Shown: one piece after another, positions 1,850 through 44,925 of the stretch
Numbering within the stretch: the stretch's first letter is position 1
How the letters are laid out: each line of letters starts with the position of its first letter
Sequence record: MN850619.1
Strand: one strand, 5' to 3'
Origin: Escherichia phage finno
Length of the DNA stretch: 64,000 bases
The notes under the pieces: generated by a model
Seen by the model: the letters and a program-made list of their open reading frames with translations, nothing else
Told to the model about the DNA's origin: nothing
Databases searched by the model: none
Program-made: the position numbers and the translations under genes

Positions 1850-2629
1850 TCAGCTTATGAATTTGAACTTTTTAGAATACATCAAGTAGTGAACTTCATC
1901 CTGATTTGTTGTGTAGATGTACGCTGCTGGGTAGTTATCAAAGAACACCCCTTCATATCTTCCAAACGGGTCAACTGGGAACATTTCACTGTTACACATA
2001 CCCATCTCACTAACCAGAGGGTAACTAACCTCAACCTTGCCATCAACAAGCTGATAGAGGGTAACTTGATTAGTCTTCCCGTCACTTAGCACGACACCAT
2101 CATAGAATTGTGGTGCTGAGGTAGCATACTTAGGGGTAACTACACTTGCCATTGCTTCATCATAGACGTATAGGTACACATCAACGTTATACATAACACT
2201 ATTAATGAGGCTTTTCACAGCTTGTGCATCTAAACCACCTATACCTGCCCCAATCATGGGTAAACCAATCTTACGAATGTTGTGCAGCCAGCAAAATTTA
2301 CGGAGTTTTTCTAGTGACTCCACTAAGTATCGGTATGATGCACACTTCCCAACATCCAACTGTGTATATAGGTTAAAAATGTAACCATACTCCGTTCGAG
2401 CATGTGACACCTCACCAACCATCTGGTATCCGATATCATGAGCACTGTAGCCAAACTTTTTATGGAATTTCCGGTCAGCTTCTTCAGCTTTTGGGAAAAT
2501 CTTAGCAATTTTTTGAGCGATTCCAGCACCCATGAGGTTACGACAGTTGCAACCATGAGCAATTAACTCAATATCTGTGTTTTTGAAGGCAGCCAGTAAG
2601 TTACCTTTCACAACTTTTACAATACCCAT
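1850..2629 (-). CDS. macro-domain (ADP-ribose binding/hydrolase-like) protein with about 100 aa C-terminal extension
   Basis: Motifs VKVVKGNLL...IAHGCNCRNLMGAGIAQKI and IGLPMIGAGIGGLD resemble macro-domain signatures such as E. coli YmdB (recalled from memory). Confidence 0.6.
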   Translation of the reverse strand: MGIVKVVKGNLLAAFKNTDIELIAHGCNCRNLMGAGIAQKIAKIFPKAEEADRKFHKKFGYSAHDIGYQMVGEVSHARTEYGYIFNLYTQLDVGKCASYRYLVESLEKLRKFCWLHNIRKIGLPMIGAGIGGLDAQAVKSLINSVMYNVDVYLYVYDEAMASVVTPKYATSAPQFYDGVVLSDGKTNQVTLYQLVDGKVEVSYPLVSEMGMCNSEMFPVDPFGRYEGVFFDNYPAAYIYTTNQDEVHYLMYSKKFKFIS

Positions 2630-2830
2630 TTAACATCTCTCCCAAGATTCTTTATCTTCTGAAGGTTTTACACGTTGCCCCTCATGGTCTACCCAGATGC
2701 ACCCACAACCTTCACAGATTACTGGCATTGCATAGCCAGCTTTAAAGTCATCTTCAGTGATAAGACCTTTTAAGTCACCTGTATCACGTCCGAACATTTC
2801 GATAGAACAGTCTTTACAGAAGTCAGCCAT
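2630..2830 (-). CDS. small zinc-ribbon protein (CxxC...CxGC)
   Basis: Start moved to internal ATG at 2830 (MADFCKDC) with AGAGG RBS; avoids 86 nt overlap with upstream gene. Confidence 0.5.
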   Translation of the reverse strand: MADFCKDCSIEMFGRDTGDLKGLITEDDFKAGYAMPVICEGCGCIWVDHEGQRVKPSEDKESWERC

Positions 2831-3050
2831 GAATAATTGCCTCTTGAATGATGATACCTTTACCACAACGGCTTTTAAAGCCTTCCAATGGTTCAGAGAT
2901 GAAGCCACGTAAGCAGTCAGTGAATACTAAGTTCTTCCTGTAAGCTATCACATCATTTGCTGTAAATGGGATGACCTCATTTCGTCCAATGAACACTGCT
3001 GACCTGATAAGTTTTCGTGTCTTTTTATCTCTGGCTAGTATTACTTTCAT
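2823..3050 (-). CDS. hypothetical protein
   Basis: 75 aa ORF in co-directional tightly packed block. Confidence 0.45.
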   Translation of the reverse strand: MKVILARDKKTRKLIRSAVFIGRNEVIPFTANDVIAYRKNLVFTDCLRGFISEPLEGFKSRCGKGIIIQEAIIHG

Positions 3051-3351
3051 AGTTTACCTTCTCAGTTAGCTCATATAAGTCAACATGCTCAATACTGTCA
3101 ATGTTGATATCAATCTTTTTGAAACGCTCCATCACTTCGTTATCAGTCATCCATATCAGACACCAATGATTCTGGATGGATTCTTCAAGAAGGTCAACAC
3201 AATCTTTAAAAGTTTTTGTATCACTTCTTGTTCCTACTACTGCGATTGTTCCATATAGCCACTTACCATTGCCATAAGATACTTGTGCTACGCCAACTTC
3301 TTTACCTTTCTCATAGTAAACGGCTACAAAGTCTCTTCCATTAATCTGCAT
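3025..3351 (-). CDS. hypothetical protein
   Basis: 108 aa ORF. Confidence 0.5.
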   Translation of the reverse strand: MQINGRDFVAVYYEKGKEVGVAQVSYGNGKWLYGTIAVVGTRSDTKTFKDCVDLLEESIQNHWCLIWMTDNEVMERFKKIDINIDSIEHVDLYELTEKVNYESNTSQR

Positions 3352-3353
3352 AG

Positions 3354-3623
3354 TTACTTCCTCGTTTTAAGAATTGCTAAGATTTCTTTAGAGTCTGGTA
3401 AGAACCATGTGTAGTGATTCTCTTTGATTTCTGGATGAGTGTCAACCTTTATTTTGCAGTCTTTACCAACATGCTTAAGTTGTGCTGTGACACCTTGCAT
3501 AAGGATATGACACATCACATTATCCATAATGGTTGGTATGAAGTCAATTCGCATATAAGTTTCTTTTGGTCGCGGTAACAGTAAGTACCCCTCTACATAG
3601 AAAGTATCTTGATTCTCTGTCAT
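3354..3623 (-). CDS. hypothetical protein
   Basis: 89 aa ORF. Confidence 0.5.
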   Translation of the reverse strand: MTENQDTFYVEGYLLLPRPKETYMRIDFIPTIMDNVMCHILMQGVTAQLKHVGKDCKIKVDTHPEIKENHYTWFLPDSKEILAILKTRK

Positions 3624-3889
3624 TGCTGCTTATTCCCTAATAAAATCATGTCAATAAGGTTGTTAGCTTTGATTGTGCACTGGTAAAAGCCGTCACGATA
3701 GAACTCAAGGGCTGCTGCTACATCACTGCCTGTGTTGCCTTTGATGATATACCGTGATTCTTCTTGAGTGTACTTATCACTCTCACTTACTTGGGAGTTT
3801 TTGAATGTACTGCTCACTTTGTTCGTTGAACACCCTGACATAGTTATCAGTAACACAAACATTATAAAACTCTGGCTTAGTTTTTTCAT
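3620..3889 (-). CDS. putative lipoprotein (possible o-spanin)
   Basis: N-terminus MKKLSQSFIMFVLLITMSGC has signal peptide with lipobox-like Cys; start lies inside the upstream membrane-protein gene in another frame. Confidence 0.4.
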   Translation of the reverse strand: MKKLSQSFIMFVLLITMSGCSTNKVSSTFKNSQVSESDKYTQEESRYIIKGNTGSDVAAALEFYRDGFYQCTIKANNLIDMILLGNKQQ

Positions 3890-4130
3890 ATGTTAGTACC
3901 TCTTTTGTATGCTTATTCTTAGCAAGCACATCTTTCAAATCATTTTTGTAATTGGTGCTCAGTGTGACTAATCCTTCCTGATAAGCATCTTTAGCAACAC
4001 TTATGAGCTTTTGATTATTTAGCTCAGTTTCAGCAACTTGATAGTCTCTGTAAGAGTATCCTCCCCAGACACCTGCCCCAACTAAGAAAACAATTATGAA
4101 AGTAGCTTGACAGAACTCTTTAAATGTCAT
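3783..4130 (-). CDS. membrane protein with N-terminal TM helix (possible i-spanin)
   Basis: Hydrophobic segment ATFIIVFLVGAGVWGG then a charged region; the lipoprotein ORF is embedded at its 3' end. Confidence 0.4.
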   Translation of the reverse strand: MTFKEFCQATFIIVFLVGAGVWGGYSYRDYQVAETELNNQKLISVAKDAYQEGLVTLSTNYKNDLKDVLAKNKHTKEVLTYEKTKPEFYNVCVTDNYVRVFNEQSEQYIQKLPSK

Positions 4131-4144
4131 TTAACAATCTCCTG

Positions 4145-4172
4145 AAAATGAAAAAGGCTCCCGAAGGAGCCT
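4145..4172 (-). terminator. rho-independent terminator
   Basis: GGCTCC-CGAA-GGAGCC hairpin followed on minus strand by TTTTTCATTTTC. Confidence 0.7.
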
Positions 4173-4183
4173 GTATCTTAACC

Positions 4184-4648
4184 TTAACCGAGGACTTTAG
4201 CAAGGACATTTGCAGCCATCGAAGAAGCTTTTGCAGCAGCAGCTACCCCAGCTTTGACAGTGCTATCCTTGATAGCAGATACCGTTGCAGCATCAGTAAA
4301 GAGATAAGTAGTTGTTTTAGAACCACTTGTAAAGGAAAGCATGAGAGCAGTTTCCAGATTGAAAGAGCGATACGGAGCACCTTCTTTAACGATACCTTCA
4401 GCACCTAATTCTGAAGCCATCCCCATATCATAGATGGTCATCAGGTTTTCTTTGTGTGCTGTCGTTGAGCCAGAACCTTTTACGTGTTTCTTAACATTCA
4501 AAAGAGCACGATACTCTCGGATGTTGCCGTCTGCTTTTACATTGACAGCACGGAAGATTTTACCCTCAAAGTTGCTCTTGATAATGTTACGAACTACTTC
4601 AGATTTGTTTGCCGTAACGTCCAGTGCTACCGTAATGATATTGTTCAT
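4184..4648 (-). CDS. hypothetical protein
   Basis: 154 aa ORF. Confidence 0.55.
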   Translation of the reverse strand: MNNIITVALDVTANKSEVVRNIIKSNFEGKIFRAVNVKADGNIREYRALLNVKKHVKGSGSTTAHKENLMTIYDMGMASELGAEGIVKEGAPYRSFNLETALMLSFTSGSKTTTYLFTDAATVSAIKDSTVKAGVAAAAKASSMAANVLAKVLG

Positions 4649-4657
4649 AAGTTTCTC

Positions 4658-5353
4658 TCAATGTTTAACTAACATGGTTTTGATGTGTGGAAGGATTCTG
4701 TTCACCTTCTGCACATTCTTCTCTGTATCTTCTATAAAACATACTATATTAAAGTAAGGCAGAATGCAAGACTGAATCATCCTCACTTTCAAACTTTCTG
4801 CACTTATAGAGTTAGTACCAAAACCACGCATAAAAAGCATGTAGTCATGCTCTGTGTTATGTCTTAAAAACATCTCAGTAGGTATTCTCTGAGATTCGCC
4901 TCTCGCTGTCAAGAGTCCAACAGCAGCATGATTAGCAATTGCATCAATGATATTGAAAACATACGTTGGTTTTGCTCTTACAGAGTCAAGAAGATTAGTG
5001 TACTGCGAAAATGAACCATCAGTCAATTCCGTTGAACAATCTTCGTGATTAAAATTTGTAAGAACTCCATCAATATCTGCTAAGATAAGATTACCTTTCT
5101 CTACAAGGTCTTTATTGACTATGACTAAACTATCACGTTTTACACCTATGGATTGTCCAGTCTCTTTGTCCACAACGTTCACAATTGGTTCTGATGTGTG
5201 GAACTCTTCAAGTGAACATACAACTTCTCTTGCGGTGTCTTCAAAATCCCTGCACTGTTCTGGAGTCCATACACAGGAATCAAGACCTAGCTCATGAGGG
5301 TGCAAGTCATAAGCATGGCACAATACTTCATCAGACTTTCTTAATTTTTTCAT
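4658..5353 (-). CDS. hypothetical protein, possible HAD-like phosphatase/nucleotidase
   Basis: DIDGVL, LLTARGE and FIEDT resemble HAD motifs I, II and IV, but motif I is unusually far from the N-terminus. Confidence 0.3.
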   Translation of the reverse strand: MKKLRKSDEVLCHAYDLHPHELGLDSCVWTPEQCRDFEDTAREVVCSLEEFHTSEPIVNVVDKETGQSIGVKRDSLVIVNKDLVEKGNLILADIDGVLTNFNHEDCSTELTDGSFSQYTNLLDSVRAKPTYVFNIIDAIANHAAVGLLTARGESQRIPTEMFLRHNTEHDYMLFMRGFGTNSISAESLKVRMIQSCILPYFNIVCFIEDTEKNVQKVNRILPHIKTMLVKH

Positions 5354-5879
5354 GGTTTACCTTAGAAATGTTTGTTGCAAATTCACATTGAGCGATTACT
5401 TTCATATTGTTATAGACATCTTGAGAATATTTCTTAGCTTTAGGGATTCTGTACGAATACCCAGCATTATATGATGCTAAAACTTTTTGTAAAGTCTTCT
5501 TTGACTTTGGCTGACCATGCACCTTTGTCCAAAACTCAAGCTCTTTGTGAGTTTCCTTAGCAGCATAGTCAAAGTCTTTTAAGAGTTTCTTTTTAGCCAC
5601 ATTAGGACTGATTTTGTTACGCTTTACAACAGTCTTCAAGTGATTCTGGAAAATACCATAATCATGCGTCTTTTTATTCTCTACCTTCAGACCTAACTCT
5701 GACTCTTGTAAGGCTATAGCAGCTAGAGTGATACCCCAACCTTTACCCATGTTATTCTCACCATACTGGTAAGCTTTTAACATGTTTACTTTTTGGCTAA
5801 TTGATAGCTCTGGGCAGTCAACTGCATAAGATAAGTGTGCTGTAAACATTAAGCACAAACCTAGAATCAATTTCTTCAT
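5331..5879 (-). CDS. secreted protein with SLT-like motif (possible lytic transglycosylase)
   Basis: Signal peptide MKKLILGLCLMFTAHLSYA; AIALQESELG resembles the lytic transglycosylase catalytic Glu-Ser motif. Confidence 0.4.
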   Translation of the reverse strand: MKKLILGLCLMFTAHLSYAVDCPELSISQKVNMLKAYQYGENNMGKGWGITLAAIALQESELGLKVENKKTHDYGIFQNHLKTVVKRNKISPNVAKKKLLKDFDYAAKETHKELEFWTKVHGQPKSKKTLQKVLASYNAGYSYRIPKAKKYSQDVYNNMKVIAQCEFATNISKVNHEKIKKV

Positions 5880-5935
5880 TGGTTCTCCTGTTTAGTTTAT
5901 CGTGACAACAATTATACAGCACTCTGCACAAAATA

Positions 5936-5968
5936 CAAATAAAAAAGGCCGCCGAAGCAGCCTTTTAA
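5936..5968 (-). terminator. rho-independent terminator after rIIB-like gene
   Basis: AAGGCCGCC-GAA-GCAGCCTT hairpin flanked by A-run and T-run. Confidence 0.65.
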
Positions 5969-5979
5969 GAAATTACTTA

Positions 5980-7089
5980 TTAGATTTCACGTTTACGTTG
6001 GGAGATAAGTTCTCCAGCAGTGCCAACGATGACATGCAAAGCTTCAGTCTTACCATCCCATTCTTTCAGCACTTTACGTTGATTATCAACGATTGCTGCA
6101 ACTTCATAACGAGACGAACGCATCTTCATATCGTTGTAATCAGTTGGAACAGATACAACATCTCGTGGATGGACACGAACCTTCAGGATTGTATCACCTG
6201 AGAAGCAACGAACGTAATCCCAAGCACCAACATGAAGACCTTGAGAGCAAGTTACGTTACGGTTATTATCAACCATCCAACGTGGCATCTCTACAATGTT
6301 ACCCAAATCATTAGGTACTCTGTATGTGTGGGAGTCAACCAGCTTACCTTCACGAGTAGATACTTTCTTCCAACCAATGATGTAGCCTTCTTCATCGATT
6401 TCAACATCAAGGTGGGATACGAAGCCCCAAAGTTGTTCTACAGAGTCTTTAGATGGGTTTTCCATCAGTTTTTCGAAGAACATTACAAGGCGTTCAAAAC
6501 CCTTATCTCCAGTCTTCATCATGTGAAGAATACGGTCAACCAGAGTAGAACGCATCTCAACAGCACCGTAGAATAACTTATCCCCTTTGATGGTGATAGC
6601 GCCCTGAGTGAAGTTTTCGATAGACTTACGAATGTTCATCAGTTCGAAAGCTTTCTTATACTCACCGGATACAACAGCCATCACGATTTCTTTGTAGTTC
6701 GGATGGGTAGATTCAACGATTTCAGAATCTGCACCGAAAGTCATGATAACAGAGTCACCAGTAATCATGTACTCAATCTGGTTGCCATTCTGCATAGCTT
6801 CATGCAGTTTATTTACCGGAGCTTTCTGTACATCCTCTTTAACAGCCTTTTTAACTGGCTTGTCAGCTTTCTTCTTAAAGGTCTTAGCAACTTGCTTTAA
6901 AGTCTTCGTAGCCGGTGTAGAAGTTGCCTTTTTATTCCCTTTTAAGGTTGCTTCATGACGCTCTACAGCACGACCGACTGAACGGGTTGAGGTGTTAAAT
7001 TTCTGTGCAATAGCTGTTTTAGTCAGCTTGCCCTCTTTAACCAGTTTGTAAATTTCTGCGTCAATCTGTGCTTTAGTTTTAGTAGTCAT
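5980..7089 (-). CDS. rIIB: rIIB-like protein
   Basis: Directly downstream of rIIA-like gene; C-terminal KVRVHPRDVVSVPTDYNDMKMR matches T4 rIIB as recalled from memory. Confidence 0.7.
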   Translation of the reverse strand: MTTKTKAQIDAEIYKLVKEGKLTKTAIAQKFNTSTRSVGRAVERHEATLKGNKKATSTPATKTLKQVAKTFKKKADKPVKKAVKEDVQKAPVNKLHEAMQNGNQIEYMITGDSVIMTFGADSEIVESTHPNYKEIVMAVVSGEYKKAFELMNIRKSIENFTQGAITIKGDKLFYGAVEMRSTLVDRILHMMKTGDKGFERLVMFFEKLMENPSKDSVEQLWGFVSHLDVEIDEEGYIIGWKKVSTREGKLVDSHTYRVPNDLGNIVEMPRWMVDNNRNVTCSQGLHVGAWDYVRCFSGDTILKVRVHPRDVVSVPTDYNDMKMRSSRYEVAAIVDNQRKVLKEWDGKTEALHVIVGTAGELISQRKREI

Positions 7090-7133: not shown

Positions 7134-7163
7134 ATTATAAGGGGCTTCAAAGCCCCTTGTCAA
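7134..7163 (-). promoter_or_regulatory. sigma70-type promoter with hairpin in the spacer
   Basis: Minus strand reads TTGACA, 18 nt spacer AGGGGCTTTGAAGCCCCT, TATAAT; about 40 nt upstream of the rIIB-like start. Confidence 0.6.
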
Positions 7164-9563: not shown

Positions 9564-9740
9564 TTACTTATTAAACATTTTACCAGAACCACCACAAATA
9601 GGGCAACAGCCTGCTCTTGTATACCCTTCCCCGTTGCAGTAATCACACTTCTTGCACTCTGCATAGTACTTGCAAAGAAGGTAAACAAATACTGCTACAC
9701 TACCAAGTGACAGTAAAATTTCTATCCAATATGCTTGCAT
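9564..9740 (-). CDS. small membrane-anchored protein with DnaJ-type zinc finger (58 aa, not in ORF track)
   Basis: Hand translation: hydrophobic N-terminus then CDYCNGEG and CPICGGSG; GAGGTGA RBS upstream of ATG at 9740. Confidence 0.45.
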   Translation of the reverse strand: MQAYWIEILLSLGSVAVFVYLLCKYYAECKKCDYCNGEGYTRAGCCPICGGSGKMFNK

Positions 9741-24342: not shown

Positions 24343-25069
24343 CCCCTTTTAACCAGCACTTCAGGTTATTAGCATCATAATTCAGTTTCGGGTATGAGGT
24401 TACATGGAACTGCTCACCATCATAGTAGACAATATCTGCAATCCATAGTCCGTTCTCTTTACAGAAGTCTTTATCTGCTTTAGAGGTAATTGGATTAACT
24501 TCTACAAAACCATCTACACCCAAATCCTTTAAGCTACCTACAATACCTTTGCAGATAACGCATGTCTCAGATACTACCACAAAAAGTTCTTGGCTTTCAA
24601 GCTCTACAATGTATTCACCAAGCTGTACTTTAGGGAGATTTGATTGCTTCATAATCTTCCCATCGGCTGCACGAACAATCGCATACCACTCTTTACCATC
24701 AACTACTGACATTCTGATAATACACTCTTGACCAGTACGCTTTTCAATGTCTGCAAGACGTTTTAAAGCTTCTTCATAGTCATCTGTGTACTTCAGGTCA
24801 TTATTATGGCAAACAGCTTTCATAGCACCGTTATGGTCATGTTGTGACAGATAAATCAATCCGTCAAGAACATATTGCAAATCCGCCTGAGCATCCAGTG
24901 TCTCAATGGGGTCTTTCTCTTCAATTGCTTTTACAAGCTCTTTTGCTTCTTCAAGCATACACAGAGATTGAGATTTTAAAGATTCCCAATACTCATCACT
25001 GTAAGGTTGCTTTTGAGTGTTTCCACAACGAAGGTTCCAGTTTTTTACTGATTCTCTTGAGTTAAACAT
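24314..25069 (-). CDS. hypothetical protein, possible MazG-like NTP pyrophosphohydrolase N-terminal domain
   Basis: N-terminal EEAKELVKAIEEKD...DAQADLQYVLDGL loosely resembles MazG/HisE helical motifs. Confidence 0.3.
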   Translation of the reverse strand: MFNSRESVKNWNLRCGNTQKQPYSDEYWESLKSQSLCMLEEAKELVKAIEEKDPIETLDAQADLQYVLDGLIYLSQHDHNGAMKAVCHNNDLKYTDDYEEALKRLADIEKRTGQECIIRMSVVDGKEWYAIVRAADGKIMKQSNLPKVQLGEYIVELESQELFVVVSETCVICKGIVGSLKDLGVDGFVEVNPITSKADKDFCKENGLWIADIVYYDGEQFHVTSYPKLNYDANNLKCWLKGVGYNGFTEH

Positions 25070-35896: not shown

Positions 35897-36039
35897 AGAA
35901 AATGTACAGTCTCTGGGGAAGGGTTGGTAAAGGTTTTGACTGGACACTTCTTCGTTCAAACGTTAAACGTAGTGAATTACCAGAACTCATCACTCACTAT
36001 TTAAAAACATACAGAGAGGTAGACTATCGTGAACAATAA
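35893..36039 (+). CDS. possible small ORF (48 aa, not in ORF track)
   Basis: ATGA overlap with upstream stop; but overlaps the GTG start of the following lipoprotein gene, so uncertain. Confidence 0.25.
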   Translation: MKKMYSLWGRVGKGFDWTLLRSNVKRSELPELITHYLKTYREVDYREQ

Positions 36040-36286
36040 GGTTAAGAGTTGTGTGAAAGCAATGGTTGCACTTGGAGTAATTTTTCTATCTGGCTGCAAC
36101 CCCTCTTATGAAGATAAAAATGCTTCTTACAGCCTCCCACCAGAGATGCAAGATTGCAGAGTATACAAGTTACATGGTGATGCTATAAGCAGAGATATTG
36201 TTGTTGTCAGATGCCCAAACTCTCAAACAACAACATCTTACAGCTATGGCAAAAATGGGGAATCACATACTACGGTTATTGAGTGA
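36029..36286 (+). CDS. putative lipoprotein
   Basis: GTG start with GAGAGG RBS; signal peptide with lipobox FLSGC. Confidence 0.5.
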   Translation: MNNKVKSCVKAMVALGVIFLSGCNPSYEDKNASYSLPPEMQDCRVYKLHGDAISRDIVVVRCPNSQTTTSYSYGKNGESHTTVIE

Positions 36287-41711: not shown

Positions 41712-41756
41712 ACAAAAAAGGCTCCCGTAAAAAGGAGCCTTAAAATTTTATTTTTC
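41712..41756. terminator. bidirectional rho-independent terminator between convergent blocks
   Basis: AAGGCTCC-CGTAAAA-AGGAGCCTT hairpin flanked by A-run and TTTTATTTTT. Confidence 0.75.
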
Positions 41757-42119
41757 AGTATTCTTTGTGTTCTTTTCAGTAATAGCTTGGAGGGCTGATA
41801 CTGATTGAGCCAGATTGTTAACACTATCAGAGAATTTATCAAGAGTCTTGGTAAGTTTTGCGTTCTCTCCCTTAACATTCTCTAACTGGACTTTCTGGTT
41901 CTCCATCCCTAGCTGAAGCAGCCTCATATCAGACTGTAAATCACGAATAGCTGAATAATTGCTTTTGGAATAATTATCTAGCTGTTGTAACTTTGTTGTG
42001 ATAGACACTTCTTGTTTACCATCCGAAACTTGCATGGTGGTATACATCCCAATAACACTAAAAATACCAACTACAATTGCACCAATATTATTTTTAAAAG
42101 CTTCCTCTAGCCACTTCAT
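41748..42119 (-). CDS. membrane protein with coiled-coil region
   Basis: N-terminal TM segment IGAIVVGIFSVIGMY followed by heptad-rich sequence. Confidence 0.5.
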   Translation of the reverse strand: MKWLEEAFKNNIGAIVVGIFSVIGMYTTMQVSDGKQEVSITTKLQQLDNYSKSNYSAIRDLQSDMRLLQLGMENQKVQLENVKGENAKLTKTLDKFSDSVNNLAQSVSALQAITEKNTKNTEK

Positions 42120-42314
42120 TTATTTCTCCCCCTTAAAAGCTTTTTCTAAGTTATCTACGAACTCATCATCAATAGGTGTGTCTGTCTTACTCGCAAGGTA
42201 TCTTGCAAGCCTAAAGAACACTTTCTCAATCATGTATTCACTTAGAAGGGATAAAATGAGTTTCCAGAAGAAGCTACCTAGATTTTTTAGAAGAATTGCT
42301 AGGATTGTAGGCAT
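42120..42314 (-). CDS. small hydrophobic protein
   Basis: 64 aa with hydrophobic N-terminus. Confidence 0.4.
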   Translation of the reverse strand: MPTILAILLKNLGSFFWKLILSLLSEYMIEKVFFRLARYLASKTDTPIDDEFVDNLEKAFKGEK

Positions 42315-42393: not shown

Positions 42394-44925
42394 TTAAGCA
42401 GTTCTCACCCAAGCCATTAACTTATAGAACTGGTTAGTAACACTAAATGCTGAACCAGAACCTGTACCACCAGTGTTACCGCTAACTGTATGGCTGTGAG
42501 CACCAATACCAACACTGTGAGCATGGTTACCAGCAGAAGCAGCAGTACCAGAGATTGTGTGGGTGTGAGCACCAGCAGCATCAGTGTAACCCGGTCCTAC
42601 ACCAATACTACCACCACCACCACCAGAGTAGTGGGTAGAGTTCTGACCAATCCATGAAATAGAGTGGTTGTGGTGACCAGCAGATGAAGTAGAGCCACTT
42701 ACAGAGTGTGTGTGAGCACCAGTCGTGTTAGTGTTTTTTGTTCCGTAGTCAAACGATGAGGTAGTCGCAGAAAAACTGTGCGTGTGTGAAGGTAAGTTAC
42801 CAACAGATAACGTTACAGAATCTGAACCACCAGTTGTAGCAACATCTGAACCATTTGCTGCTGCAATTCTAATAGTTCTACCAACACCATTATTCAGATA
42901 CGTCCAAGTTAGACCAGGCAGTGCTGTATTAGGGTTAACATTACTGTTAAACCACGTTACAATACCTACTGGATAGATTTTATTAAGGTCTGTAGAGTCA
43001 CTTACTGCCTGTGCAATCTTCTGGTCAGTTTCATCTTTAGTGTATGCACCAATATCTGAAGGGGTTGGTTTTTGCAAACTAGTGTAGTATTTTGCAACTG
43101 TACCCTTCACAATACCTTGTGGTGCATCATCAAATGTCTGTGGAGCTTCAAACAACTGTACACTTGCATTACTAGAAGATTGAACTCTTGATGTTGTGTT
43201 GTTTTGGTATGGACCAACTCTACAGTAAATGTCATAAGCATCGCCAGATGTATTAACATAACCGATATCAGTGATGATGACATTATCTGATGTTCTCCAA
43301 GCCACGGCATTTAAACCTTTTGGATTGTTATTTGATGTTCGTAAAACAACCTCACACTTACCTGCTTGTTGTGGTGTATTGATATTAAAACCTGCCCCAC
43401 CAAACACTTCAATCACCGCAGTAGATGCGGATTGCGGCATTACAACAGTAGCAATTTTAACCCATTTTTCACCGTTTCCATTATTGAAGCCAGTACTTCT
43501 GATTCTCAGGTATCTGCTATCACTAGCACTTCGAGTGAAATATCTAGCATCTAAGTTAGTCCAGTCAGAAGGTTGTACTTGACCAGTAATGTCTAAACTC
43601 TTATTAGCCTTAATTACTGACGACCCAAGAGTAATTTGAGTACCAGAGTAGCTGTTGTTTAAGGCTACATCAGTAGAATTTGTTCCACCTACACCTACCC
43701 ACCACCTAGATACGTTCGCAGTATCCACACCACGGATATATTGCGGCTGCCCCTGTGTCAAGTTCTTTAATACCAAACCCTCATTGTTAGATACAATAGT
43801 TTGCACATTTGTGAAAGTATTAGACACATTAAGTTTAGGAAGATTATTCAAAGTAGCTGCTGGAATGTATCTAGAATCAATGTTAGTCCAGTCAGAAGGT
43901 TGTACTTGACCAGTGATTTTGACAGTCTTACTAAATGTTACACCAGACGCGTTTAATTTAATGGAAGTGTCCCCCTTGTAATCATAAATTGTGATATTAG
44001 AGGTTACATCACCTTTACCAATATACCACAAATTATTGTTTTCACTGTCCTTTGCTAGGATGAACAGAGTCTCATTGACCGTTTTATTTTTTAGAATGAT
44101 AGCAGCACCATCAGAGTTCACATTGACATTATTACTGAATGTGTTTAAACCACTGAAGGTGTTATTACCAACTAGCTGCGCAAATCTCTGATTAGCTGCT
44201 GTCTGAGTAAAGTATCTAGCATCTAAGTTAGAGAAGTCAGAAGGCTGAACTTGACCAGTGATTGCTAAAGATTTATTAACAGAGATATTGCTTGCAACAA
44301 TCACTGCTGAGTTGTATTTGCTGTTATACAGGCTTACTGCATCCTCGCCATTGCTACCAATACCAACCCACCATCTAGCTGAACCATCTAGGTTTACACC
44401 CTCAATGTATTGTGCATTATTTGCAATCTGGTTTCTAAGGCGAAGTGCATTACCATCACTTTGAATGTTCTGATTTCTAGAGAATGTGTTTGTTACAGCA
44501 AGCCTTGCATATCTTGCATCGTTCTCTTCATTGGTTCTCATTCCAAGCTCATTAGGACTTGGCTTATTCAAAGTGTGGTAAACAGTTGCAGACCTTGAAG
44601 CATCTGCAATAGTTAGTTTAAGACCGTTTGCATTGATTTTAAAAGCCTTTAAAACATCCCCCATAGTAATCTCAGAAGAGCCTGTAGGGTCAAATACCGC
44701 CTTACCACCATAAAGTAACTTGACAATTCCTAAGTCACCCGTCATAGTACTGCCAGCAATCTGAACAAATCTTTCAAGTTTAAAAGATGCTAAGAAGTCT
44801 TGATAGGTCATTCGACGGTCTTCATCACCCAGCATTTCAGGTCTCTTTTTAACCCTGACATGAAGAAGGTCGTCTGAACGAATTGTATCAATTGAGTTTA
44901 ATTCACTCAACTTGTAATCTGCCAT
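42394..44925 (-). CDS. long tail fibre protein with His-box C-terminal domain
   Basis: 843 aa; three internal repeats ITGQVQPSD(W/F)xN(L/I)DxRY; C-terminal HxH repeats ending MAWVRTA. Confidence 0.75.
43542..44275. repeat. three dispersed ~52 bp direct repeats inside tail fibre gene
   Basis: Near-identical stretches at about 43542-43593, 43869-43920 and 44224-44275. Confidence 0.7.

Follow-up and report, generated by a model that had tools for sequence, protein, structure and literature searches.

Felix O1-type overlapped spanin genes in a non-structural block of Escherichia phage finno

Does a small membrane protein whose gene overlaps that of a lipoprotein, in a block of phage genes remote from the structural module, form the spanin complex on which phages of Gram-negative bacteria depend to breach the outer membrane at the end of lysis, or does it serve the cell envelope in some other way? 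We addressed this question for positions 3620-4130 of the window, by which we mean the whole stretch of 64,000 nucleotides of Escherichia phage finno (sequence record MN850619.1) that was analysed. A prediction made from the sequence letters had described here a protein of 115 aa with a single transmembrane (TM) helix at its N-terminus and, in another frame, an 89-aa lipoprotein, and both reading frames were indeed present on the minus strand, with these lengths and features. We consider it very likely that the locus supplies a myophage of the Felix O1 type with its two-component spanin, which acts in the last step of Gram-negative host lysis.

A gene pair that is already catalogued

The region from 3000 to 6000 shares 97.5% identity with Salmonella phage Felix O1, which places the window in Felixounavirus, and 257 phage records match this region, their hosts being mostly Escherichia, Salmonella, Shigella and Citrobacter. 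The 115-aa protein is letter for letter the Felix01 i-spanin p014 of SpaninDB, a hand-curated collection published as a supplement by Kongari et al. 2018 (PMC6139136). The Felix01 entry (NC_005282, coordinates 5330-5678 and 5571-5841) is assigned to class 'ovl'; its two genes overlap by 107 bp, the o-spanin has 89 aa and the i-spanin a single periplasmic cysteine (PMC6139136). The reading of the locus as an overlapped Rz/Rz1-type spanin pair is thus in agreement with a curated entry, to which the i-spanin is 100% identical. SpaninDB families are BLASTCLUST clusters, and the overlapped 'JH2' families, which are defined bioinformatically, take in both proteins of Felix01, FO1a, Moogle, Mushroom, WV8 and UAB_Phi87, with PhiEco32 also included in the 'JH2' i-spanin family (PMC6139136). 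By sequence, both proteins encoded here belong to these families, the o-spanin being 98.9% identical to that of Felix O1 (tblastn) and 81% identical to that of Moogle. In protein lengths (115 and 89 aa), in the 107 bp of overlap, in the Shine-Dalgarno (SD) sequence and in the one periplasmic cysteine of each protein, the pair equals the Felix O1/JH2 spanins; nothing of substance differs, the two being one locus in closely related phages.

The pair therefore consists of Felix O1-type overlapped spanin genes that are already known and curated, and i-spanin and o-spanin labels can be found in many GenBank records, including those of pinkbiff, Andreotti, JK55, vB_Si_35FD and Moogle. Annotation is nevertheless uneven. 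In the RefSeq annotation of Felix O1 the first gene is an 'Rz-like spanin' and the second a 'hypothetical protein', and in several GenBank records the o-spanin reading frame is either unannotated or begun at Met17, without the signal peptide, as in the pinkbiff record, where it has 73 aa. Our analysis confirms the start that gives 89 aa against the Met17 annotation. The significance of the locus goes little beyond correct annotation, and correct labels for lysis genes are desirable since typing and biocontrol of Salmonella and E. coli make wide use of Felix O1-like phages. Experimental work on spanins concerns essentially lambda, together with the T4 complementation by Kongari et al. (PMC6139136), and our literature search found no functional experiment on any member of the Felix O1/JH2 spanin family.

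Two envelope proteins from overlapping genes

The i-spanin gene (3783-4130, minus strand) was assigned from its reading frame, its hydropathy, its identity with the SpaninDB protein and a match to PHROG 1152 'Rz-like spanin' (E = 1e-41). The protein consists of a short N-terminus, one TM helix (residues ~6-24, FCQATFIIVFLVGAGVWGG, codons 4059-4115 on the minus strand) and a hydrophilic remainder of 88 residues, 30% charged. Its hydropathy profile contains a single hydrophobic segment, with a Kyte-Doolittle 17-residue maximum of 2.0 and windows above 1.6 at residues 5-26 only, so that the bulk of the protein lies beyond one N-terminal TM domain, as is expected of an i-spanin. We infer an N-in/C-out (type II) orientation, for which the flanking charges are not decisive. 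The AlphaFold2 single-sequence model is all-helical, with a mean pLDDT of only 47. In the SpaninDB supplement the Felix01 i-spanin has 66% predicted helix and no predicted coiled coil, and the Moogle i-spanin has a coiled-coil segment at residues 52-79 (PMC6139136). An SD sequence, CAGGAG, lies 8 nt before the ATG (4139-4144, minus strand), and the same SD is given in SpaninDB (tttttcatttcAGGAGattgttaa).

The o-spanin gene (3620-3889, minus strand) encodes a precursor of 89 aa and, by prediction, a mature lipoprotein of 70 aa, an assignment that draws on the reading frame, PHROG matches, record labels and SpaninDB. The N-terminus, MKKLSQSFIMFVLLITMSGC followed by STNK, combines a basic n-region, a hydrophobic core and the lipobox M-S-G-C (3830-3841, minus strand; Cys20 codon 3830-3832), which was read from the sequence, matched by a regular expression and contains a cysteine that is invariant among homologues. 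It fits a PROSITE-style lipoprotein rule and a signal peptidase II site, and since the +2 residue is Ser it carries no Asp inner-membrane retention signal. The Met at position -3 of the lipobox lies outside the classical [LVI] consensus. The two targeting signals for which the original prediction asked, a TM segment by the Kyte-Doolittle scale and a lipobox by the PROSITE-style rule, were thus both recovered. The o-spanin matches PHROG 4180, of unknown function (E = 2e-50), and weakly PHROG 456 'Rz-like spanin' (E = 3e-4); NCBIfam lipoprotein models match its N-terminus only, and other NCBIfam matches are noise. Pfam contains no family for either protein, and a PDB sequence search with the two of them returned nothing meaningful. 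Proline is absent from the mature o-spanin, and the Felix01 protein is listed in the SpaninDB supplement with 20% predicted helix and 16% strand (PMC6139136). The AlphaFold2 single-sequence model of the o-spanin (mean pLDDT 71, signal peptide modelled as strand) is, like that of the i-spanin, too unreliable for a fold search. A C-terminal hydrophobic segment is absent from the o-spanin, which sets it apart from unimolecular spanins of the T1 gp11 type.

The o-spanin reading frame (+1 relative to the i-spanin) opens within the i-spanin gene and continues 163 nt past the end of that gene; the o-spanin gene is therefore of the 'overlapped' class and not 'embedded', as the title of the original prediction had it. 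The 107-bp dual-coding overlap (3783-3889, minus strand), which also provides the adjacency of genes expected of a two-component spanin, is delimited by the coordinates of the reading frames and distinguished by reduced divergence and by residues conserved in both proteins. It encodes residues 81-115 of the i-spanin, with the motif YEKTKPxFYNxC...Y...FNE and Cys92 (codon 3855-3857), and residues 1-35 of the o-spanin, that is, the signal peptide and the lipobox. Against Moogle, nucleotide divergence amounts to 11% for the overlap, compared with 25% for the part that encodes only the i-spanin and 29% for the part that encodes only the o-spanin (Fisher p = 5e-4). The overlap, evolving at less than half the rate of its flanks, is under dual constraint.

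These data bear on the possibility that only the 115-aa membrane protein is real and that the 89-aa frame arose by chance in an alternative frame, with a start that merely looks like that of a lipoprotein. Such starts are indeed easily had: randomised 64-kb sequences contain about 3.6 lipoprotein-type N-termini each, and the six-frame scan of the window yielded 2. The motif scan is therefore not above chance and was not used as evidence that the o-spanin gene is real. Several GenBank records omit the frame or start it at Met17, and 'only the i-spanin' was reported in one phage (PMC8300805); against this, a bias of gene callers against overlapped genes is known (PMC6139136) and accounts for missing annotations. 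Moreover, in each of the 342 matching records the 89-aa frame is preserved intact along 80% or more of its length, its conservation extends beyond the overlap into residues 36-89, where G54, C71, N76 and L78 are invariant at ~30% identity, it has an SD of its own (AAGAGG, 9 nt before the ATG and within the i-spanin coding sequence; 3899-3904, minus strand), and the overlap diverges more slowly than its flanks. A chance frame is thus effectively refuted by conservation, and we give it a negligible probability, the lowest of the alternatives that we considered. The case for the o-spanin gene is one of conservation and context, not of the motif.

The arrangement of the two genes resembles that of lysB and lysC of phage P2, the overlapped example among the paradigm spanin systems, where the o-spanin gene, again in the +1 frame, also begins within the i-spanin gene and ends past it (PMC6139136). 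In both phages a type II membrane protein is paired with an outer-membrane lipoprotein, which for the pair studied here is a prediction from sequence, and the P2 proteins belong to other SpaninDB i- and o-spanin families. With Rz/Rz1 of lambda the pair would share the two-protein topology and, by analogy, a presumed periplasm-spanning and membrane-fusing mechanism, and the conserved periplasmic cysteines fit homotypic disulfides. In contrast, Rz1 is fully embedded in Rz and is described as unstructured (PMC6139136), whereas the o-spanin found here is overlapped, free of proline and 70 aa long when mature; the lambda proteins also belong to another SpaninDB family.

Conservation and genomic surroundings

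By tblastn, 342 phage records contain the lipoprotein and 401 the membrane protein, each best match covering at least 80% of the query. The total of 401 records for the i-spanin, made up of Ounavirinae, Kuravirus-like and 9NA-like phages, is taken to be too small to include the T4-like group. Homologues at 27-34% identity occur in Kolesnikvirus, Kuravirus, Sashavirus and Gorganvirus, with the overlapped arrangement kept; they include Erwinia phage phiEa21-4 (Kolesnikvirus), the phiEco32-like podophages Kuravirus SU10 and Bas93, the 9NA-like Salmonella siphophage Solent and Proteus phage 2207-N35, and the spanin pair of the unclassified Klebsiella phage phi_270 closely resembles that of Solent. 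Wherever the reading frames were read, in phiEa21-4, SU10, Solent, phi_270 and 2207-N35, the lipoprotein frame started within the 3' end of the membrane-protein gene in each of them, and the overlap is also kept in Moogle. In Solent the homologous pair (pairwise BLASTP E-values: o-spanins 2e-12, i-spanins 8e-9) ends a cassette that reads holin/antiholin, endolysin, holin/antiholin, i-spanin, o-spanin, and in Proteus phage 2207-N35 an endolysin gene is followed by the spanin pair.

Invariant positions in the alignments are L4, C20 (the lipobox cysteine), T22, G54, C71, N76 and L78 in the o-spanin (alignment A1), and G24, E82, K83, N90, C92, Y97 and N102 in the i-spanin (alignment A2). Exactly one periplasmic cysteine is thus retained per protein (Cys92 of the i-spanin, Cys71 of the o-spanin), and in both it falls in the C-terminal part, where conservation is highest. 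Conservation of these C-terminal regions is compatible with an interaction of the two proteins and is no test of it. At least one periplasmic cysteine is present in 507 of 528 spanin systems (PMC6139136), and the two cysteines fit the general rule of disulfide-linked spanins. What our comparisons add to the curated assignment is the ~30% identical homologues, in which the overlap, the lipobox cysteine and a single periplasmic cysteine per protein are retained, the cassettes of the 9NA-like phages and the slowly evolving overlap, all of which lend new support to the predicted function.

The spanin genes of finno lie in a block with rIIA and rIIB, polynucleotide kinase/phosphatase-like and macro-domain genes, far from the structural genes. 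The lysB and lysC genes of P2, unlike the pair in this rII/pnk-like/macro-domain cluster, are part of a lysis cassette. The original prediction had called such a placement unusual, a judgement that the literature does not bear out: scattered lysis genes, not gathered in a cassette, are documented for Felix O1-like phages (PMC4319497, PMC6486253), one Felix O1-like genome announcement uses the term 'T4-like lysis system' (PMC4392139), and in T4 itself pseT.3 and pseT.2, which complement lambda Rz/Rz1, are likewise not near the holin gene t and the endolysin gene e (PMC6139136). For the spanin genes of Felix O1-like phages, separation from the rest of the lysis genes is thus normal. T4 has a class III single-TMD holin, a soluble lysozyme and rII genes (PMC4392139, PMC6139136), and it shares with the pair described here both the location of its spanin genes, apart from holin and endolysin in a non-structural block, and an o-spanin that is structured (here by prediction) and not a proline-rich coil. 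On the other hand, the T4 genes are of the 'separated' class and not overlapped, and the T4 i-spanin and o-spanin have 0 and 2 periplasmic cysteines, respectively, compared with one in each protein here.

The same surroundings would also suit an early, non-lytic envelope system, for instance for superinfection exclusion or envelope protection, that resembles spanins in topology only; the proline-free and partly structured o-spanin of our predictions would be in keeping with it, and a stand-alone lipoprotein encoded at 36029-36286 indicates that envelope lipoproteins with other roles exist in this phage. However, homologues of both proteins end canonical holin-endolysin cassettes in 9NA-like siphophages, the strict paired and overlapped arrangement is kept across unrelated phage backbones, the bona fide spanins of T4 sit in blocks of just this kind (PMC6139136), and no other spanin candidate is at hand for the outer-membrane step. 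We regard a non-lytic role as improbable, if the least improbable of the alternatives to a spanin pair.

Neither the window nor the Felix O1 region that it lacks contains a competing spanin pair according to TM and lipoprotein-motif scans, and the original prediction, which was to be given up if the true pair turned up elsewhere in the genome, is upheld in this respect. The only other lipoprotein-like frame of the window, at 36029-36286 (plus strand; Felix ORF91), has the lipobox LSGC, and its upstream neighbour is a soluble protein of 48 aa; it has neither a TM partner nor a C-terminal TM domain. The coiled protein with a single TM domain encoded at 41748-42119 (minus strand) has no embedded or adjacent lipoprotein frame and corresponds to the putative holin. 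The 21 kb of Felix O1 missing from the window gave only two implausible motif matches, inside annotated genes and apparently on the opposite strand.

The association of spanin genes with a holin/endolysin cassette, which is typical and not obligatory, was not observed. The original prediction was right that no holin or endolysin gene adjoins the pair; however, genes for both can be named. The product of 41748-42119, about 38 kb away, is a putative holin of 123 aa with one N-terminal TM domain (TM scan, ORF list and record labels) to which many Felixounavirus records give the label holin or putative holin, and a class III holin has been described for phage Mushroom (PMC4392139). The endolysin of Felix O1 is the lysozyme ORF35, of which tblastn found no copy in the window; the window ends correspond to Felix O1 positions of about 11 kb and 32 kb, and the endolysin gene therefore falls in the part that the window does not cover. 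The putative holin gene is located downstream of a tail-fibre gene, with one ORF of 64 aa between them. In T4, the holin gene t similarly follows the tail-fibre genes, and in finno the single-TMD candidate is separated from its tail-fibre gene by this one small ORF.

A different source of muralytic activity had been proposed in the protein encoded at 5331-5879, which resembles soluble lytic transglycosylases (SLT). If it were an endolysin exported by its signal peptide, the stretch from 3620 to 5879 would be a cryptic lysis module that includes the spanins. The protein does have a Sec-type signal peptide (MKKLILGLCLMFTAHLSYA followed by VD) and the motifs E59-S60, G75-I-F-Q78 and A135-S-Y-N-A-G140, and some records label it 'putative lysin'. 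We take the ES, GIFQ and SYNAG motifs to resemble those of lytic transglycosylase family 1. However, the match to Pfam SLT (PF01464) scores 19.2 bits (E = 9e-4), below the gathering cut-off of 21.3, the protein is assigned to PHROG 600, 'unknown function', and a PDB sequence search with it found no relative. Two genes and a terminator-like hairpin intervene between this gene and the spanins, and the distant spanin homologues occur without it alongside. Because this type of phage has a canonical soluble lysozyme, annotated as endolysin elsewhere in Felix O1-like genomes, the SLT-like protein is not needed as an endolysin to explain lysis. A cryptic lysis module has a very small probability, below that of a non-lytic envelope system.

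Proposed mechanism and control of expression

From what was directly observed (the reading frames, their targeting signals, the overlap, the conservation and the homology to pairs in lysis cassettes) a mechanism for the spanin pair can be proposed. Each gene would be translated from its own SD site. The N-terminal helix of the i-spanin would anchor it in the inner membrane, leaving a mostly helical domain of 88 residues in the periplasm, and the o-spanin would be exported, cleaved by signal peptidase II and lipidated on Cys20; with Ser at +2, it would then be sorted by the Lol system to the outer membrane, into its inner leaflet. The two proteins may bind each other through their conserved C-terminal domains, so that the complex would span the periplasm through the peptidoglycan mesh, and i-spanin Cys92 and o-spanin Cys71 probably form homodimer disulfides. 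Once the holin frees the soluble lysozyme and the peptidoglycan is destroyed, the spanin complexes would collapse and fuse or disrupt both membranes, and phage would be released. Lipidation, sorting, complex formation, disulfides and membrane fusion are drawn here by analogy from the lambda and T4 paradigms, and the steps of lipoprotein biogenesis also from established knowledge. Departures from the lambda picture, namely the proline-free o-spanin, the i-spanin with no predicted coiled coil and the Met at -3 of the lipobox, were counted against the proposal, as was a terminator-like hairpin that directly precedes the genes with no promoter after it.

How the spanin genes are expressed is suggested by a terminator-like hairpin just upstream of them. 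The hairpin, GGCUCC-UUCG-GGAGCC-UUUUUCAUUUU with its U-run (4145-4172, minus strand; terminator scan, folding energy -14 kcal/mol), lies after the upstream gene's stop codon (4184) and before the SD of the i-spanin gene, and a scan found no sigma-70-like promoter between it and the i-spanin ATG. We infer that the spanin genes are probably reached by read-through of this terminator, which would keep their expression low. A hairpin is present at the same position in Moogle, phiEa21-4 and Kuravirus SU10; that of phiEa21-4 has a different stem and is annotated there as a terminator, and that of SU10 also has a different stem (z = -3.6). The position is thus common to Felixounavirus, Mooglevirus, Kolesnikvirus and Kuravirus. 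One tentative idea, to which we assign a low probability, is that the hairpin abutting the i-spanin ribosome-binding site is a conserved control element of spanin dosage or timing or, alternatively, that the proline-free and structured o-spanins form a family with a variant mechanism. Control by the hairpin could operate either by limiting expression to read-through or through late antitermination. If true, it would be a so far undescribed regulatory feature of 'scattered' spanin loci; our literature search for a Felixounavirus transcriptome that dates spanin gene expression returned nothing relevant. Elsewhere in the same block, a second hairpin follows rIIB (5966-5943), and a perfect TTGACA-18-TATAAT promoter precedes that gene (7163-7134).

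Flanks and start codon of the spanin pair

A terminator-like hairpin followed by a U-run (4145-4172, minus strand) directly abuts the ribosome-binding site of the i-spanin gene, and no promoter-like site was found between this hairpin and the i-spanin start codon. Hairpins occupy the equivalent position in the Mooglevirus Moogle (about 24960-24990), in the Kolesnikvirus phiEa21-4 of Erwinia (2246-2265) and in Kuravirus SU10 (about 2408-2431), with stem sequences that differ, and the one that precedes the i-spanin in Kolesnikvirus is a terminator in the existing annotation. Just downstream of the spanin pair lies a macro-domain gene (1850-2629, minus strand), annotated as 'phosphatase' or for Appr-1-p processing. 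Its distance from the pair is about 1 kb in the window, and its counterparts directly adjoin the spanins in phiEa21-4 (2784-3566) and Kuravirus SU10 (2939-3379). The linkage between spanins and macro-domain gene is thus common to very different phage backbones.

The o-spanin of Escherichia phage pinkbiff (4621-4842) is annotated as a protein of 73 aa, with a start codon equivalent to Met17 (MSGC...), by which the signal peptide is lost. The start that gives 89 aa, which is served by the Shine-Dalgarno sequence AAGAGG, is the plausible choice.

Other genes of the cluster

Two genes upstream of the spanins, a gene annotated 'polynucleotide kinase' (4658-5353, minus strand) encodes 231 aa with the DxDGT-type motif LADIDGVLT, and its product may represent the 3'-phosphatase (HAD-like) part instead of a full Pnk. 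The presence of this Pnk-like gene near the spanins loosely recalls the pseT-pseT.2-pseT.3 neighbourhood of T4. The product of 5331-5879 (minus strand) bears a Sec signal together with ES, GIFQ and SYNAG motifs, its match to the Pfam SLT domain is below threshold, and the Felix O1 record likens its counterpart to the 20.7-kDa 'vs-regB intergenic' protein of T4; it may be an exported lytic-transglycosylase-like protein. Within the same cluster, rIIB has a sigma-70 promoter of perfect consensus (TTGACA-18-TATAAT) just upstream (7134-7163, minus strand) and a strong terminator-like hairpin just downstream (5943-5966, minus strand), and thus looks like a separate transcription unit.

Putative holin and other small proteins

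Many Felixounavirus records label the gene at 41748-42119 (minus strand) holin or putative holin, a label for which no experimental support was found. Its 123-aa product has one N-terminal TMD and a long C-terminal region, possibly coiled-coil. Upstream of the gene come first an ORF of 64 aa (42120-42314, minus strand) and then the tail-fibre gene (42394-44925), a placement similar to that of T4 t, which follows gene 38.

A second predicted lipoprotein (85 aa; 36029-36286, plus strand), corresponding to Felix O1 ORF91, is encoded from a GTG start upstream of the DNA ligase gene. Its N-terminus, MNNKVKSCVKAMVALGVIFLSGC|NPS, carries a classical lipobox (LSGC), and it belongs to PHROG 902, of unknown function. 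This ORF has no membrane-protein partner, and its product may act as an envelope or exclusion factor. Finally, a 58-aa protein (9564-9740, minus strand), a member of PHROG 3931 (also of unknown function), has an N-terminal TMD and, after it, a CxxCxGxG-type zinc-finger motif (CDYCNGEG...CPICGGSG).
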